Positions 5,360 through 42,290 of a stretch of 64,000 bases of DNA are shown in pieces. The DNA comes from Candidatus Latescibacterota bacterium (GTDB taxonomy: Bacteria; Latescibacterota; UBA2968; GCA-2709665), in NCBI GenBank assembly GCA_965208835.1, contig OZ242358.1, positions 1,824,001-1,888,000 of the forward strand. Reading direction: 5' to 3'. The translations under genes and the position numbers were made by a program. Within the stretch, counting starts at the first letter, position 1, and the number at the start of each line of letters is the position of its first letter. The notes beneath the pieces were generated by a model that worked only from the letters and a program-made list of their open reading frames with translations, did not search any database and was not told the DNA's origin.

Positions 5360-5388
5360 TCATCCTGCCTATCCTGTTCATCCATGTA
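5360..5388. repeat. 9-bp-periodic motif ATCCTG..TATCCTGT..ATCCATGT (forward)
   Basis: Same motif at 6255, 7120, 7710 and 10976; reverse complement at 6735, 8394 and 8500. Confidence 0.85.
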
Positions 5389-5438
5389 AGATTGGGTTTT
5401 GCCTGTGGAGGCGGTAGGGGGGTATCGTCGATCTCGGG

Positions 5439-5819
5439 TTACCAGATGGTCTGCGGATAGAACGTCCGGATTCTTGAATCGGATGTGACGATGGGGCAGG
5501 CGTTGAGGCTGGCGGTTGCGACGATGGTGCGATCGGCAGGATCGCGATGGTCCCAATCGAGTTCGAGGTTTCCGATCCATGTTCGGACGCATACCGGCAG
5601 GATTTCGACGCGGTCGACTTGCTCGAGTCTACTGGTGAATTCGCGAATGGGTGCCGGGATAACCAGTTGTTGTTTCTTCACTTTAATTCCGATTTCCCAT
5701 ATAGAGATTGCGCTCAGGGCAATCCTGTCGGCGTCAGTGATGGCCTGCGTTGCTGCCGTAGACAACCGATCACGATCCAGCGTCCAGATTACAAGGGCCG
5801 AAGTGTCCAGCAGCACCAT
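5439..5819 (-). CDS. vapC: PIN-domain (VapC) toxin
   Basis: LLDTSALVIW, SAISIWEIGIK, HRDPADRTIVATA, IVTSD; TAATG overlap with the antitoxin. Confidence 0.9.
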   Translation of the reverse strand: MVLLDTSALVIWTLDRDRLSTAATQAITDADRIALSAISIWEIGIKVKKQQLVIPAPIREFTSRLEQVDRVEILPVCVRTWIGNLELDWDHRDPADRTIVATASLNACPIVTSDSRIRTFYPQTIW

Positions 5820-6049
5820 TACACGTCCGCCCATTCATCAGTGGTTGGCAGATTGATGTCTTCGTGATAGATCACGCCGCCCTGAATGTCGCCGAAAGCT
5901 TCTTCCACGGTCTTCTTGCGTGCAATAGGCAGAATGCGCAGCACCGGTCGACCGCGATCCGTGACGATCAGTTCTTCGCCGGAATCATCAAGTTCGCGAA
6001 AGATACGGAGCATTTGTGCTTTCAATTTGCTCTTTGAGATGGTTTGCAA
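5819..6049 (-). CDS. Phd/YefM family antitoxin
   Basis: ISKSKLKAQMLRIFRELDDSGEELIVTDRGRPVLRI; coupled upstream of the PIN gene. Confidence 0.88.
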   Translation of the reverse strand: MQTISKSKLKAQMLRIFRELDDSGEELIVTDRGRPVLRILPIARKKTVEEAFGDIQGGVIYHEDINLPTTDEWADV

Positions 6050-6066
6050 GGTTTCTCCTCAATTAA

Positions 6067-6098
6067 AGTTTATGACTATGGTCATGACTATAGTCAAT
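6067..6098 (-). promoter_or_regulatory. TA promoter with tandem palindromic operators
   Basis: TGACTATGGTCA and TGACTATAGTCA back to back, overlapping minus-strand TTGACT (-35) and TAAACT (-10). Confidence 0.65.
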
Positions 6099-6323
6099 AT
6101 ACACAAATGCAAACATCCGGTCAACGAATTTTCTGACATGGATTGACTACAGAATACTTTCCTTGTTTGACTATGATTTACTGTGATTGGGACAATGGAG
6201 GGATAGAGGGGGCAGGATGTACCTGGAGTCCGGGCGGCGTTTCGTTTTCGGCCTTTGTCCTGCCTATCCTGTGCATCCATGTTTCGTACGTCTTTGCACA
6301 GGCCGATAGCCAGAACTTTGCGC

Positions 6324-6545
6324 AGACCCAACCGCCACCGGCGTCAGTGTCATCTGCATTTACTCGCGCAGCCGGATCTTGATTTCGTCAACAGAAGCCG
6401 TGTCCAGGAACAACGCCAATTCCTTCTTGAGGTTTTCCCTGGATTCGGCTGCGGTCTTTCCCTGGCTCGCGATGTCCAACTCTGGGCAGAGCGCGACGTA
6501 CCCATCGCCCACGCGCTCGATAACTGCCGTCAACTGCCTGCTCAT
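6324..6545 (-). pseudogene. hicB: HicB-family antitoxin with a premature stop, followed by a decayed hicA start
   Basis: MSRQLTAVIERVGDGYVALCPELDIASQGKT...RLRE*, then in frame MQMTLTPVAVG resembling the usual VTQVEVAVG tail; the downstream LGLRKVL... is interrupted by a repeat. Confidence 0.65.
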
Positions 6546-6734
6546 CACCAACTCACGCAATCCCGACTCGATGAATTAACATGGATTCAACTGCATGAAG
6601 GAGAAGCATCCCGGCTTGCCAACGATTCGAGCGATTTCTGTATTATATATGATTATACGTGCGGTGGGTTCCCGGTTTTATCCTCTCGATCCTGTGTATT
6701 TTTTCTTGGTGGCCTTTCGCTACTAACAATGGCC

Positions 6735-7150
6735 TACATGGATGGACAGGATAAACAGGATTAGAACCTTGAAAATCGACTGCCCCAATCAAACCTATGC
6801 GACGGGAAAGCCAGTCAAAGCGGACCTTGAGCCCACTTAAACGTGGTCACTGAGCTTGCCTGCATTGCGTGTGCTGAGCCTGTCGAAGCAAGCTTGTCGA
6901 AATGTCGAAGTGTACGTGTTTCGGCACCCGTTCGACTCCCATGCACAGCCCTTCGCCGATCCCTTCGACAAGCTCAGGGAGCGGCTCCGGGCAAGGCTAA
7001 GGGCCTCAGTTTTGGAGACCACGGTATGGTTCACGTGCTACGGTGTCTCGGCCCCCACCATGTCTCGTGTCGTGCCCTGCCTGATTCCCCTGCTTGTCCC
7101 GCATTTGTGGTTTTCCGCCTTTATCCTGCCTATCCTGTGTATCCATGTTT
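6735..7150. mobile_element. ~415-bp non-coding composite element: 9-mer-periodic terminal inverted repeats enclosing a CCCTTCGACAAGCTCAGG REP-type arm
   Basis: TACATGGATGGACAGGATAAACAGGAT ... ATCCTGCCTATCCTGTGTATCCATGT; 6920-7150 is homologous to 10765-11005 and 6838-6990 to revcomp 57770-57877. Confidence 0.65.
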
Positions 7151-7290
7151 ATGGATCTATGAGTTGACATAAATGTGCGCGAACAGCCATAACGCGGCAG
7201 GAATGCGGCTGGCCAGCCGGCGATGTAGGTGGGGCTTTGATTCGGAGCGAAGAAGCGTTAAATTTGGCTAAAGATCCTGAGGAGATGAAT

Positions 7291-7581
7291 ATGCATATGA
7301 AAAATCCGCCGCATCCTGGACATTCGGTGCGTTACGATTGCCTGGAACCGCTTGGCTTGAGTGTCGCGGAAGCCGCACCAAAACTCGGTGTCGCCCGAAA
7401 ACACCTGTCTGATATCGTCAGCGGTCAGGCTGGCATCTCACCCGAGATGGCGATTCGCCTGGACAAGGCGTTCAGCGGCGGCGCGCAAACGTGGTACCGG
7501 ATGCAAGCCGCCTACGACCTCGCACAGGCCATGCAGAGGGCTGACGAGATACGCGTCGAGCGTCTTGTCATGCACGAGTGA
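7291..7581 (+). CDS. higA: HigA family antitoxin (orphan, no higB)
   Basis: MKNPPHPG...LGLSVAEAA...[10 protein letters not shown]...W..MQAAYDL. Confidence 0.9.
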
Positions 7582-7740
7582 ATTCTGACTGTACTGACGA
7601 ATGCTAGTCGTCCACCCTGACATTCCGCCCATCCCACCATTCCGCCTTCCTCAATTTGAGTCAGATCCGCACGTGGTTATACTGGCTCGCCAGTTTATTG
7701 GTTTTCCGCCTTTATCCTGCCTATCCTGTGCATCCATGTT

Positions 7741-8352
7741 TCATGCTTTGTTTTGCGGATTGTCGCCGGATTGTTCCCACGCTTTCGTGAACGTCTCCGG
7801 TTCGACGCCGAGCGCATCGGCCACGCGGTTGATATAGTTGAAAAAGCCGATGATCTGGACCGCGTCGTGGATGGCGCGGTCGTCGAAGCCGTACTCACGC
7901 AGCCCGTCGATGTCCGCGGCCGTTGAAGCACGCGGATCCAGACTGAGCCCCTCCGCGAAGGCGCACAGCGCGCGGTCGGCGGCCGGCAGGTCGGCCCGGC
8001 GCCAGTCCGCGGCCAACTGATGCACCAGCCAGTCGGCTTCCTCGCCGTCCTCGACGTCGAACTCTCCGGCGACCTCGGCACGGAGGTCGTGGGCGTGAGA
8101 GCGTATTCAGTACACGCAGTGGTTCGCGGCCGAGACCACCACGGCGAGCATCTCCCGCCGCGCGCGGCTGAGGGGCGAGGGGCCGTGCATCAACGTGCCG
8201 TAGAAATCCAGCGAAGCCTTCATCGCCGGCGGATTCGGGCTCATTACGGAGACGATGCCCCAGATCCTTCCGGCACGCTTCAGCGCCGCGTCATACAGCT
8301 TCTTCAACAGGCCAGTGGCCCTATCCGGAGGAATAACATCGATATACGGCAT
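7741..8352 (-). CDS. AhpD-like peroxidase-related enzyme, probable selenoprotein (CVYU, in-frame TGA at 8107-8109)
   Basis: ORFs 8107..8352 and 7741..8025 share a frame and are joined by 27 sense codons; REMLAVVVSAANHCVY-U-IRSH, C-terminal FNYINRVADALG. Confidence 0.85.
8070..8089 (-). promoter_or_regulatory. candidate bacterial SECIS hairpin
   Basis: CGACCUC-CGUGCC-GAGGUCG perfect 7-bp stem starting 17 nt after the UGA, with GU in the apical loop. Confidence 0.7.
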
Positions 8353-8587
8353 CGTAAGACCCCCATTCCGCCACAGTCAAATCAAAAGCAACTTACATGG
8401 ATGAACAGGATGAGCAGGATAAAACTGCAAGAAACCACGAAATCAACGGAAGCAGTGAAAGCCATAAGAGACATAAAACCCCAAATCAAATCCGCTAAAC
8501 ATTGATGGAAAGGATGTACAGGAGGAAACCGGCGGTACAGTCTGCCATCCATCTTGCCAGAGAGTGTCGTTCAGGATTGCGCTTCAG

Positions 8588-8615
8588 AAAAAACCCACGC
8601 TTAGCGGACGTGGGT
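8588..8615 (-). terminator. intrinsic terminator downstream of the ATPase-DUF3226 pair
   Basis: Minus strand CCCACG-loop-CGTGGG followed by TTTTTT. Confidence 0.55.
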
Positions 8616-8736
8616 GTCAATAATGCGTGAGCAGTTGCGTAATCTCAGAAACTGTCTACCACCGGATTCTTCGAATAGATGCGCCAATTCTCCTTGTTGT
8701 TCGTTCAATCTGTTCAGCGTCTAGGGGCAGTGATCA

Positions 8737-9345
8737 TTATAGTATTCGTAGAAAATCACGGACATTCCGGAACGTGTCATGATTTAGATCCCAATAGCCG
8801 TTCATCGCTGCGACGCCTACAGAGTAGTGGGGATCTGGTTTGGTTGTGAGATAGGCATGGACACGGGCCTTGTCGGTATTTTTAATTGATACGCTTGCCG
8901 AGTCTTCCACACAAGTAAAGAAGCCATCAATGCATTGATCCACTGAGGTATCTGCGAAGCTTTCACAGATCAATGTTTCAAGCATACCGCGACGATTTTC
9001 GTCGGGAAGTATCAGCACCGTCACTGCCGGGTTGGGGTTAGAAGGCTCTCCGGACTTCTGCGGGATAGGCAATTTGACCTTCTTTAATGACGAACGGACG
9101 CTCTGAAATGCGCTTTTTGCAGACATTTCTGCATCGCGTACGATGCCGATACTTTGAACGGCGTCAAAATCCGGCATTTTAACGAATGCAAGCAGAAATC
9201 CGCTGAGTTCGTTCACGCCTCCGAAATTTTGAATCTGAATATTCTCTATGGATAGGTGCTCTACGAATGCTCTAAAGAAATTCCTTTGGTCATTGCCTTC
9301 AACGAGAAGCTGAATATCTGACTCGATTTCCTCTGCTTTTGGCAT
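8737..9345 (-). CDS. DUF3226-like TOPRIM-fold protein
   Basis: LLVEGNDQ..., FGG, IGIVRDAE, GMLETL, KARVHAYL, GYWDLNH; directly downstream of the ATPase; GC lower than flanks. Confidence 0.75.
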   Translation of the reverse strand: MPKAEEIESDIQLLVEGNDQRNFFRAFVEHLSIENIQIQNFGGVNELSGFLLAFVKMPDFDAVQSIGIVRDAEMSAKSAFQSVRSSLKKVKLPIPQKSGEPSNPNPAVTVLILPDENRRGMLETLICESFADTSVDQCIDGFFTCVEDSASVSIKNTDKARVHAYLTTKPDPHYSVGVAAMNGYWDLNHDTFRNVRDFLRIL

Positions 9346-9347
9346 GC

Positions 9348-10391
9348 CTATCGGACCTCAAGATTGTGCCGGATTGCTCCGTCGATTGCATCAGGTTCAT
9401 AGGTGACACATCGACTCCCTTTGTCAGCGATTTCAAGTCTGTGTAAGCGAAATCTGTCCTTACTCAGAGAATCGTGCGCTGCCATCACGCACTCCATACT
9501 GTGTGTGGTTGCGAATAATTGGGTCCGAAACTGCCGAGCTGCTTCATCGATAACGCGCCAGACATCAGGCAGTACCGTGTGGTGTATGCCGTTTTCGAGT
9601 TCATCTACCATAACGACACCATCTGGTACGGAAGCGATACCTAATACAAGGCGTGCTATTTGGGTCATGCCTTCGCCCATTACGGATAGAGGCACCAGTT
9701 CAGACCACCCGATATCTCCCCAGATCATGGGCGACCCGCTGGAAGAATTATCCTCAATGCTTTGCAATCTGGGTTCGAAGACACGTAGTGCCTTTAGGAG
9801 CATATCTCCCTGCTTCTGTTGCCTCAACCGACCCAGTCTAACTGCATCTTCATGGATATTCCGATTGCGAGATAAGAGAATTATCGCCTGAAACGGAGGA
9901 TTTGTCGTAGGCTGGTTTACCTCAAAACCCTGTCCCTTCATACTTATCTGGCTCTTTACGGATTTACGGGAGGGGCCTGTATACTGAAACGCAAGAGAAC
10001 GTTCGTCAAGGAGGTTTGTAATTGAAGTGCCATTTGTACGGTCGAGAGGAATTTCAGTCGTGGGCTGTCGTTCTGAAGTAATCTTCAGAGTGAATTGTGC
10101 ACGCGATGATCTCTGCGCAATTATCTCAATTGATCGTCCCATGTCCAGATTGGAAAAAAGCTGTTTCCAAAACGGATCGGCGGTAGAAACCCCATGCGGG
10201 ACCAATCCTCGAATGACATTGTCATTCATTGCCAACTGGGTGTTGCCCGCTCCTGATAGCAGAAATACCGCTTCAAGCAAGCTTGTCTTTCCGGAGTTAT
10301 TTTTGCCGGCAATCAGGTTGATGCCACCCAAGTCGTCAATCTTCAGGGCATTAAACCCGCGGAAATTTCGTATCTGTAAGCGTTTCAACAT
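9348..10391 (-). CDS. AAA_15/AAA_21-type ABC ATPase
   Basis: NFRGF, Walker A GKNNSGKT, MGEG signature, Walker B VMVDELENGIH, FATTHS. Confidence 0.9.
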   Translation of the reverse strand: MLKRLQIRNFRGFNALKIDDLGGINLIAGKNNSGKTSLLEAVFLLSGAGNTQLAMNDNVIRGLVPHGVSTADPFWKQLFSNLDMGRSIEIIAQRSSRAQFTLKITSERQPTTEIPLDRTNGTSITNLLDERSLAFQYTGPSRKSVKSQISMKGQGFEVNQPTTNPPFQAIILLSRNRNIHEDAVRLGRLRQQKQGDMLLKALRVFEPRLQSIEDNSSSGSPMIWGDIGWSELVPLSVMGEGMTQIARLVLGIASVPDGVVMVDELENGIHHTVLPDVWRVIDEAARQFRTQLFATTHSMECVMAAHDSLSKDRFRLHRLEIADKGSRCVTYEPDAIDGAIRHNLEVR

Positions 10392-10556
10392 CGCTATCGC
10401 CCCTCAGTAGATCTTCGAATTGTGGCGAATATCATCGAGCGGATTCACCATCTATGTGGATGCGAGACTCAGGAATAATATCCAAAACCGATGCAAAGAT
10501 CAAATAGTTCCACGAAGTCATCGATCCTTCAGTAAACTTGGCGCATTGACCGGGGT

Positions 10557-10752
10557 TCAGTAAGCTTCCTCGCGCAGCCGTTGCTTGATTTCCGAATCCG
10601 AGGCCGTCTCCAGGAACAACTCCAATGCCTCCTTTAGATTCTCCCTTGCATCCGACACGGTTGTTCCCTGGCTGGCGACGTCCAGTTCAGGGCAGAGGGC
10701 GACGTAGCCGTCGTCCTCACGTTCTATAATTGCTGTCAGCTGTCTTGTTATT
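10557..10752 (-). pseudogene. hicB: second HicB-family antitoxin remnant (start codon reads ATA, truncated C-terminus)
   Basis: ITRQLTAIIEREDDGYVALCPELDVASQGTTVSDARENLKEALELFLE...EEAY*; paralog of 6360..6545; no hicA. Confidence 0.65.
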
Positions 10753-10764
10753 GCAGGCTCACTT

Positions 10765-11005
10765 TTTTCGGCACCCGTTCGACTACCTTGCAAAGACCTT
10801 CGCCGACCCTTCGACCCTTCGACAGGCTCAGGGACCGCAGGCTCAGGGAGCGGCTCAGGACCGCAGGTTTAGAGGCCACAGAATGGTTCAAGTACTACAG
10901 TGGCTCGTCAACCGCGACGTCTCGAGTCGAGCTTTGCCTGATTTCCCCGCCTGTCCCGCCTTTTGGTTCTATGCTTTTATCCTGCTTATCCTGTTTATCC
11001 ATGTT
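10765..11005. repeat. right arm of the composite REP/9-mer element
   Basis: Collinear with 6920-7150: TTTCGGCACCCGTTCGACT...CCCTTCGACAGGCTCAGGG...ATGGTTCA.GT.CTAC...TTTATCCTGCTTATCCTGTTTATCCATGTT. Confidence 0.8.
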
Positions 11006-12099: not shown

Positions 12100-12270
12100 G
12101 GGTAGACGGAAGACGTAAGAGGGGAGAGGAGTTCCTGCCTTGTGAGTTTTCCTTTTATACCGTAGGCAAGTGGAGAGACCAAATCGGGCGAAGACCTCAT
12201 CTCCCGTCTCCCGTCTCACCTCTACCCGCTCTTTGGATTTCATCTCCCGTCTAACGTCTTACGTCTCCCC
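12100..12270. repeat. Heptamer-ended palindromic element, copy B (plus extra heptamers covering the DsbA stop)
   Basis: GGTAGAC GGAAGAC GTAAGAG GGGAGAG ... CTCCCGT CTCCCGT CTCACCT CTACCC. Confidence 0.85.
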
Positions 12271-12891
12271 ACTTAATGCTTTCTCCAGCTTTGCCATCGC
12301 GGTTTCGGCGTTGGCCCAGCCGCGGACGATGTCGGTCTGCGCGTCGCCGTGTCTCACGACCACGCTCGGGAATTCACGGACGCCCATCGAGCGGCGCAGG
12401 TTGAAACCCGCCTGCAAATCGGCCTCGATCTCCGGCGAACTGATATCCCGTTCGAAACGACCCATGTCCAGCGGTGGCGAAAGCGACCCGGCCACCGCGG
12501 TCAGCGTTTCGATGTCCGAGGGGTTCCGCGCCTGCCTGTAATACGCCCGCTGTATGGCGTCGAACATATCGGGAACGGCGTCTTCACGCTGCGCCCTTGC
12601 CGCCAGCACCGCGCGGCATGCGGGGTAGGTAGACCGGCGTGGCTTGCATTTTCGCCAGAAGTCCCAGTTGAATTCCGCCCCGGTCGTCGCCGCCACGTCC
12701 TGCCAGTTCCGCTGCACGTACGCGCGCGTTGCTTCGGGCATCGGCTCGTCCGAATCCTTCGCCAGCCCGCCCATCACATACACCACGGGAACGGCCTCCG
12801 GAAGCTCCGAGACGATCTGCTGCAGCACCGGCCTGAAGCCCCAGCACCACGAACACATCGGGTCTCCCACGTAATAGAGTTGCGGATCCAC
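12259..12891 (-). CDS. DsbA-family (DSBA-like thioredoxin) protein
   Basis: YVGDPMCSWCWGF CxxC, STYPACRAV, GVREFPSVV. Confidence 0.88.
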   Translation of the reverse strand: MDPQLYYVGDPMCSWCWGFRPVLQQIVSELPEAVPVVYVMGGLAKDSDEPMPEATRAYVQRNWQDVAATTGAEFNWDFWRKCKPRRSTYPACRAVLAARAQREDAVPDMFDAIQRAYYRQARNPSDIETLTAVAGSLSPPLDMGRFERDISSPEIEADLQAGFNLRRSMGVREFPSVVVRHGDAQTDIVRGWANAETAMAKLEKALSGET

Positions 12892-42135: not shown

Positions 42136-42290
42136 GACAGGATTAAGCAGGATTAAAAGGCAAAAACAGGCTCAGCACCGACGGAAGGATCAGTGCCAAG
42201 ACCCAACAGGATTAACGGCATTAGAACGAAAGAGCAAGATCAGAACCGACCAGGATTGACAGGATTAACAGGATCGTGCAGGATAACAAC
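42136..42290. repeat. CAGGATTAA 9/10-mer periodic patch
   Basis: caggattaagcaggattaa...caggattgacaggattaacaggatcgtgcaggataa; same motif as 4908-4950. Confidence 0.75.

Follow-up and report, generated by a model that had tools for sequence, protein, structure and literature searches.

The analysed window, a stretch of 64,000 nucleotides from a Candidatus Latescibacterota genome, carries on its minus strand a gene that starts with an ATG at 8352–8350 and ends with a TGA stop codon at 7743–7741. The frame (8352..7741, minus strand) comprises 203 sense codons, and the only TGA inside it lies at 8109..8107, where it forms codon 82. When translated with genetic code table 11, the same stretch is reported as two separate open reading frames, 8107..8352 (81 aa) and 7741..8025, the latter beginning at an internal GTG and encoding 94 aa. 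The original prediction had joined these two frames into a single frame of 203 codons interrupted by nothing but the TGA, and this was confirmed by translation. Every detail of that description held, and only the strand had been left unstated; the whole feature lies on the minus strand.

The peptide surrounding the in-frame TGA reads N-H-C-V-Y-U-I-R-S-H, which places the UGA (8107..8109, minus strand) at the second position of a C79-x-x-U82 motif. Its assignment as a selenocysteine (Sec) codon is based on the conservation of the TGA and on its alignment with the second Cys of CxxC proteins. The complete coding sequence, including the stop codon (7741..8352, minus strand), was assigned to an AhpD-like (TIGR01926) selenoprotein on the basis of the frame together with a TIGR01926 match that spans the TGA, while the choice of start codon is supported by an M-P-Y-I-D N-terminus kept among the orthologs. 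A sequencing error as the source of the TGA was ruled out by independent assemblies. Among the 40 differences listed for contigs of four public sequencing runs, none changed the TGA at 8107–8109, and the bin containing it was covered in all four; the TGC or TGT that had been named in advance as evidence against the gene did not appear there. None of the 23 public runs listed was of RNA.

The family and fold of the read-through protein were assessed by profile and structure searches in which Cys was used in place of Sec. The NCBIfam model TIGR01926, "peroxidase-related enzyme", was matched with a score of 135.2 bits, above its cut-off of 81.8, with residues 2–185 aligned to positions 1–175 of the 178 in the profile, and the Pfam CMD domain (PF02627) at 50.8 bits. 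The cut-off of TIGR00777, which represents canonical AhpD, was not reached (21.2 vs 191.95 bits), and the gene product is therefore not filed as AhpD proper. Similarly, NF041238, the model for the AhpD-related CFYUT (seleno)protein, stayed below its cut-off (60.1 vs 175 bits) and aligned only through the C-terminal part of its 357-position profile. Among proteins of solved structure, sequence matches were obtained to 6k40 (E 4e-28, 37% identity), 2oyo, 3c1l, 2pfx and 2prr, in which a CxxC motif aligned to the CxxU motif of the gene.

An AlphaFold2 model built from 38 sequences was all-helical, with a pLDDT of 95.3 and a pTM of 0.91, and in this model helices 63–76 and 80–97 form the catalytic two-helix hairpin. 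When compared by Foldseek, the model superposed on 6k40, an AhpD-like protein of D. radiodurans, with TM scores of 0.80/0.87, and the other structures retrieved were the same set as in the sequence search. The scores were lower for PA0269 of P. aeruginosa (2o4d; 0.60/0.82 over 152 columns) and for M. tuberculosis AhpD (1gu9; 0.42/0.49). The closest solved relatives are thus DR_1765 (the D. radiodurans protein in 6k40) and the JCSG structures 2oyo, 2pfx, 3c1l and 2prr, which share the length class and the order of helices with the protein described here. They differ from it in having Cys at the position of Sec and in lacking an inserted acidic segment at about residues 96–107, where the alignment shows a gap. 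The functions of proteins of the DR_1765 type and of the JCSG structures are themselves described as largely inferred (PMC6300522).

The region encoding the active-site helix hairpin (8095..8154, minus strand) was delimited by the spacing of the AhpD proton-relay residues and by the AlphaFold2 helices, and it encodes E67, C79, Y81, U82 and H86. The proton relay has been described as Glu36, Cys48, Tyr50, Cys51 and His55 in PA0269 and as Glu118, Cys130, His132, Cys133 and His137 in M. tuberculosis AhpD, in which the motif is located at the C-terminus of the chain (PMC3141380). The five residues encoded here have the same spacing as both of these sets, Glu-x11-Cys-x-(His/Tyr)-Cys-x3-His, as compared along the chain, and the catalytic helix hairpin is common to all three proteins. 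Tyr81 corresponds to Tyr50 of PA0269, whereas M. tuberculosis AhpD has His132 at this position. Despite the shared motif, M. tuberculosis AhpD is not orthologous, as judged from the TIGR00777 score and from the TM score of 0.42 to 1gu9.

The conservation of the in-frame TGA was assessed at increasing evolutionary distance. Forty related genomes were searched, among them 14 other genomes of the genus, and an ortholog with an in-frame TGA was present in all 14 of the latter at 80–93% identity; with the present gene included, the codon occupies the same column in every one of the 15 genus sequences. Three orthologs from two other genera of the family (64–66% identity) likewise contain an in-frame TGA. 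In the DNA of each of these orthologs the TGA lies at the C-V-Y-U column, as it does in two distant relatives that read C-V-F-U. When one genome per species was scanned, 287 loci encoding a relative were obtained, and the 80 that were kept all had TGA at the column (80/80); they were labelled as Candidatus Latescibacterota (near-identical loci), Chloroflexota, Gemmatimonadota, Calditrichia, Planctomycetota and other groups. Across 168 genomes of the phylum, 56 contained a match at E <= 1e-10, and all 47 matches at E <= 1e-40 held an in-frame TGA, as did the three metagenome loci compared, at the same column (3/3).

The residues found at this column in public protein collections were more varied. 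Among the best 120 database proteins, 19 had the Cys of a CxxC motif, three had the second Cys alone, 20 had W, two had G, and R and L occurred once each. A further 57 were pieces of 112–129 aa that started at the TGA column or at most two codons after it, which means that gene callers do split CxxU genes of the TIGR01926 type, as had been anticipated for standard pipelines. The pairing of Cys and TGA proposed in the original prediction, in which the TGA stands exactly where AhpD proteins have the second Cys of CxxC, was borne out by 6k40, 2oyo and the 19 CxxC homologs on one side and by the TGA-bearing loci on the other.

Downstream of the UGA lies a hairpin (8070..8089, minus strand) that was identified as the SECIS element from RNAalifold predictions, covariation and invariance within the genus. 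Its 5' arm occupies 8089–8083, the loop CGUGCC 8082–8077 and the 3' arm 8076–8070. The perfect 7-bp stem CGACCUC/GAGGUCG, the 6-nt loop and the distance of 24 nt from the UGA to the first loop base all agreed with what had been proposed for this site, and the hairpin as a whole is located 21–40 nt downstream of the UGA. In the bSECIS model (bSECISearch, Zhang and Gladyshev), as given in a recent review, the loop measures 3–9 nt, the stem 4–16 bp and the spacing 16–37 nt, at least one of the first two loop nucleotides is a G, in most cases with a G or U after it, and the minimum free energy is at or below -7.5 kcal/mol (PMC13188914). When compared with these published values, the hairpin fell within all of them, with its G at loop position 2 followed by U and a minimum free energy of -10.5 kcal/mol for the 20 nt. 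No Rfam family was matched in a scan of 7500–8600 at E <= 10, and the element thus conforms structurally to the bacterial SECIS consensus without having a matching Rfam model. The local 76-nt fold was unexceptional for G+C-rich DNA (z = -0.36; 70 of 200 shuffles folded as well).

The evidence for the hairpin comes from its conservation. The 15 genus orthologs differ at 241 of the 582 nucleotide columns of their alignment, and the longest invariant run in the gene, 30 nt across codons 86–95, coincides with the hairpin, the next longest measuring 16 nt. The amino acid is invariant at 110 degenerate codons, of which only 37 are also invariant as codons, and a run of 10 such codons arose in 44 of 100,000 shuffles. 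When 76 distinct sequences from several phyla were folded together, RNAalifold returned exactly the same seven pairs. Of the 532 cells concerned, 98.9% were paired, compared with 20–43% in controls with slid partners. Four of the seven pairs never vary among the 76 sequences, while the third (24–37) is CG in 60, UA in 13, UG in two and CC in one, giving a covariation score that was reached by none of 500 shuffles. Within the loop, positions 1, 2 and 4 do not vary, and either U or G occurs at position 3. With the pattern GAYCUC-CGKGNN-GAGRUC in all 76 distinct sequences, the element is unusually uniform relative to the bacterial SECIS consensus. The three orthologs from outside the genus have a weaker form, in which an A.C mismatch in the stem leaves -6.4 to -7.8 kcal/mol, borderline relative to the -7.5 kcal/mol threshold. 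A possible lower stem, UCUC.CG/CG.GAGA, would extend the hairpin to 8063..8100 (minus strand) and was predicted for this genome only (-15.8 kcal/mol for 45 nt). Its 3' side, formed by codons 96–97, varies freely among orthologs, and the lower stem is probably not a conserved part of the SECIS.

An alternative to be weighed here is that the hairpin is conserved merely for the peptide it encodes, with Sec insertion depending on another signal or being so inefficient that the main product is the 81-residue N-terminal fragment. The peptide H-A-H-D-L-R-A-E-V is indeed conserved as protein, part of the conservation of the hairpin could be at the protein level, and Sec insertion in bacteria competes with termination. 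However, synonymous positions in the stem are frozen, with the Leu codon CUC and the Glu codon GAG invariant in 76 of 76 distinct sequences, and the variable pair changes on both sides, with the two U-G forms as intermediates to the 13 U-A forms and with a single mismatch. The double change converts an Asp codon from GAC to GAU together with the replacement of Val GUC by Ile AUC, so that an amino-acid change was accepted to keep the pair. The frozen positions and this covariation argue, at the level of sequence comparison, that the RNA structure is the constraint. Moreover, the peptide H-D-L-R-x-E-V/I is absent from the CxxC homologs, in keeping with an RNA element that dictates the peptide and not the reverse. 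An 81-residue fragment would also lack five helices of the fold in the AlphaFold2 model. We consider this alternative very improbable.

Decoding of the UGA as Sec was assessed further by searching the genome, a single contig of 5.18 Mb that is 97.8% complete, for the genes involved. The genes selA (563.6 bits) and selB (361.2 bits) and the tRNA-Sec (73.4 bits) lie side by side at 3.536–3.540 Mb, and the anticodon of the tRNA was identified as UCA by ARAGORN. The selD gene (358.6 bits) is located at 4.40 Mb and itself contains an in-frame TGA, in the context T-C-G-U-A-A-K. All four scores are above the curated cut-offs. The prediction that the gene implies Sec machinery in the lineage, together with its proposal to look for selA, selB, selC and selD, was thus answered by a complete set that includes a Sec-containing selD, and this confirms that the Latescibacterota lineage represented here decodes Sec.

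The same data bear on the idea that the UGA is read as Trp, Gly or Cys, either through a lineage-wide change of the code or through near-cognate suppression. The W in 20 and the G in two of the best 120 database homologs are what would be expected from genetic codes 4 and 25. Against this, the gene's own stop codon is TGA, as is that of most orthologs, so this organism uses TGA for termination. Moreover, this column, occupied by Cys in CxxC homologs, is the redox-active position, at which Trp or Gly would be inactive, and a tRNA-Sec (UCA) is present alongside selA, selB and selD. The simplest account of the database entries with W or G is that gene callers applying code 4 or 25 probably mistranslated TGA codons. 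No W- or G-bearing database protein matched exactly any of the locus DNA compared, which included the three metagenome loci. Taken together, a residue other than Sec at this codon appears highly unlikely.

Purifying selection was compared on the two sides of the TGA over 105 pairs of genus sequences, giving a dN/dS of 0.124 for codons 1–81 and 0.190 for codons 83–194; the low downstream value implies that the part after the TGA is translated and under purifying selection. A pseudogene, in which a nonsense mutation had left the downstream part of an AhpD-like gene untranslated, might be suspected from the table 11 frame ending at codon 82, from a location among repeats and shuffled small cassettes, a setting in which decayed genes are frequent, and from partial or degenerate extra copies in two related genomes, but it is least probable of all and, judged from these alignments, refuted in effect by the TGA kept at one column in several phyla and in all searched genus genomes and by the downstream dN/dS of 0.19, with the Cys of distant homologs at that column, the conserved hairpin and the complete Sec machinery pointing the same way.

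We therefore conclude, with a probability of about 95%, that 8352..7741 on the minus strand is a genuine Sec-encoding gene for one 203-residue AhpD-like redox protein, in which UGA 82 is read as Sec. In bacterial Sec decoding, the hairpin loop is recognised by SelB in complex with GTP and Sec-tRNA(Sec), and Sec is thereby brought to the UGA. By the same scheme, SelB loaded with Sec-tRNA(Sec) would bind the present hairpin through its C-G-U-G-C-C loop during translation and would deliver the Sec-tRNA(Sec) to UGA 82 in place of a release factor. The Sec would replace the second Cys of the CxxC motif, and the expected product would have a C79-x-x-U82 selenenylsulfide redox centre at a helix N-terminus, flanked by E67, Y81 and H86.

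The gene is bordered by repeats. A copy of a 45-nt dispersed repeat (7698..7742, plus strand), found by repeat comparison, abuts the stop codon, and an inverted copy (8378..8425, minus strand), which pairs with it, lies 26 nt upstream of the ATG. The inverted pair, 7711–7749 with 8385–8423, extends over 39 nt and is 82% complementary. The core of the repeat consists of three ATCC(T/A)TG units at a spacing of 9 nt. Eight copies are located within 5362–11003 of the window and 20 in the whole genome at no more than three mismatches, compared with none for a reversed control pattern. In most orthologs of the genus the 45-nt repeat likewise follows the stop codon, and its translation there reads N-M-D-A-Q-D-R-Q. 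The gene was accompanied by both repeat arms at each of 13 loci compared within the genus, while the neighbouring modules between repeats are reordered or absent, and in some contigs of the public runs the two repeat arms are joined with 14 nt between them.

The neighbours comprise an HTH_3 antitoxin-like gene, a DUF3226 and AAA_21 pair and a PIN gene, and a DsbA-like gene lies 4 kb away. The cluster around the gene consists of small toxin-antitoxin and defence genes, and its modules are shuffled between genomes of the genus. The region has the appearance of a group of small cassettes that are bounded by repeats and undergo shuffling. A classical integron was considered for these cassettes and rejected: no integron integrase IntI was found in the genome, where the best TIGR02249 match, at a distance of over 2 Mb, scored 90.5 bits (cut-off 265), and copies of the repeat are found in either orientation and show no regular attC-like arrangement. 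It is conceivable, though doubtful, that the selenoprotein gene travels with its built-in SECIS as a small mobile cassette, so that the near-identical hairpins in Chloroflexota, Gemmatimonadota, Latescibacterota and other phyla would reflect horizontal spread. If so, a ready-to-use Sec gene would be spreading among Sec-competent hosts.

With regard to function, analogy with characterised relatives suggests that the protein is most likely a thiol/selenol oxidoreductase in peroxide defence, which would reduce oxidised peroxiredoxin in the manner of M. tuberculosis AhpD or weakly reduce peroxide itself. We think it probable, with moderate confidence, that such activity would proceed by cycling of C79 and U82 between the selenol/thiol and selenenylsulfide states, with E67, Y81 and H86 acting as the proton relay. 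No peroxiredoxin is encoded next to the gene; the genome contains 13 AhpC-TSA matches, all of them elsewhere. A relative in fold is Bmp8, a debrominase of the CMD family, which a review describes as a CMD homolog and dehalogenating enzyme. By analogy, the protein might instead act in the dehalogenation of brominated metabolites in a sponge-associated habitat, a role we regard as less likely even than mobility as a cassette.

The family to which the gene belongs has been recognised for some time, as the original prediction had stated. AhpD-like CxxU proteins of COG2128 were reported as a new selenoprotein family, with 27 sequences, from the Sargasso Sea metagenome in 2005 (PMC1088965), and in the GOS survey "AhpD-like 1" takes fourth place among the tabulated selenoprotein families, with 299 members containing Sec and 902 containing Cys (PMC2398784). 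AhpD-like selenoproteins have been reported from complete genomes as well (PMC1794560), a 2026 review lists the family as TIGR01926 with a CxxU motif (PMC13188914), and a database paper of the same year uses the AhpD-like family as its browsing example (PMC13326102). The gene described here shares with this family (COG2128/TIGR01926) the HMM family, the CxxU motif with Sec second and a SECIS-like hairpin after the UGA with a G in its small apical loop, and it carries every testable feature of an AhpD-like selenoprotein, namely the TIGR01926 match, CxxU, the fold and the spacing of the relay residues. There is no substantial difference from the family, the present instance being one from a Candidatus Latescibacterota genome. 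A limited literature search found no paper on selenoproteins in Latescibacterota, and the occurrence of an AhpD-like selenoprotein in this phylum is unsurprising.

The gene is thus real and ordinary, a new member of an already known selenoprotein family, and it leaves the general knowledge of selenoproteins unchanged. Its practical value lies in correct annotation, as split or mistranslated versions of such genes abound in public protein collections. The alignment of 76 distinct covarying SECIS sequences could seed an RNA model with which genes of this kind may be found and called.

The neighbourhood of the AhpD-like selenoprotein gene is marked by a dispersed repeat some 45 nt in length, the core of which consists of three ATCC(T/A)TG units at 9-nt spacing. 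The repeat occurs in both orientations and flanks single small genes, with eight copies clustered in window 5362-11003 (at 5362, 6257, 6737, 7123, 7714, 8396, 8500 and 10979) and a further copy at 42250. These eight are part of a total of 20 found in the genome when up to three mismatches were allowed. Across 13 loci from the same genus, the modules between repeat copies had changed order or were absent, and in some public contigs two repeat arms were joined with 14 nt between them. No integron integrase was found in the genome. The genes surrounding the selenoprotein gene are of toxin-antitoxin and defence-like types, comprising a PIN domain gene (5439-5834, minus strand), a small ORF judged HicB-like by eye and without a Pfam match (6360-6560, minus), an HTH_3 antitoxin-like protein (7237-7581, plus), and a DUF3226 gene (8737-9345, minus) paired with an AAA_21 ATPase gene (9348-10391, minus). 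Further away lies a DsbA-like thioredoxin-fold gene (12259-12891, minus), and no peroxiredoxin gene adjoins the selenoprotein gene. Two members of the genus have, no more than about 3-4 kb from the full gene, an additional copy of the selenoprotein gene that is incomplete or degenerate, one with two TGA codons and a shifted 5' part (G014:C1:3041783-3042371) and one covering residues 1-92 only (G008:C1:585123-585398), which fits local duplication or cassette turnover.

A distant relative with 33-36% identity and the motif C-V-F-U was found in another genus of the family, at loci L043 (G018:C739) and L045 (G021:C72), with its TGA at the same column. Its hairpin differs from that of the main gene (ACGGGC-GGGYG-GUCCGU; -8.9 and -9.3 kcal/mol), with 19 nt from the UGA to the start of its loop, and L045 carries a second in-frame TGA further upstream. 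Among the 120 best matches in public protein collections, 20 have W recorded at the selenocysteine column (P0003-P0015, P0017, P0023, P0029-P0031, P0033 and P0058) and two have G (P0019 and P0040). These entries probably represent TGA translated under code 4 or 25. Two further entries, P0024 and P0069, are near-identical but frameshifted versions.

Matches in the fold search with the AlphaFold2 model of the read-through protein include the marine debrominase Bmp8 (PDB 6ohj/6ohi; TM 0.71/0.77, 18% identity), which a review excerpt describes as a dehalogenating CMD-family enzyme. Relatives of the selenoprotein gene were present in runs labelled sponge metagenome, one of which, X6, was compared at contig level.

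Elsewhere in the source genome, in-frame TGA codons were found, one each, in two of the 13 AhpC-TSA (PF00578) matches (G000:C1:433241-433627, plus strand, and 2175427-2175765, minus), which may be peroxiredoxin-like selenoproteins. Since selD (locus L013, G000:C1:4401300-4402223, plus strand), likewise outside the window, contains a single in-frame TGA within the N-terminal loop, in the context T-C-G-U-A-A-K, the selenophosphate synthetase of this organism is also a selenoprotein.
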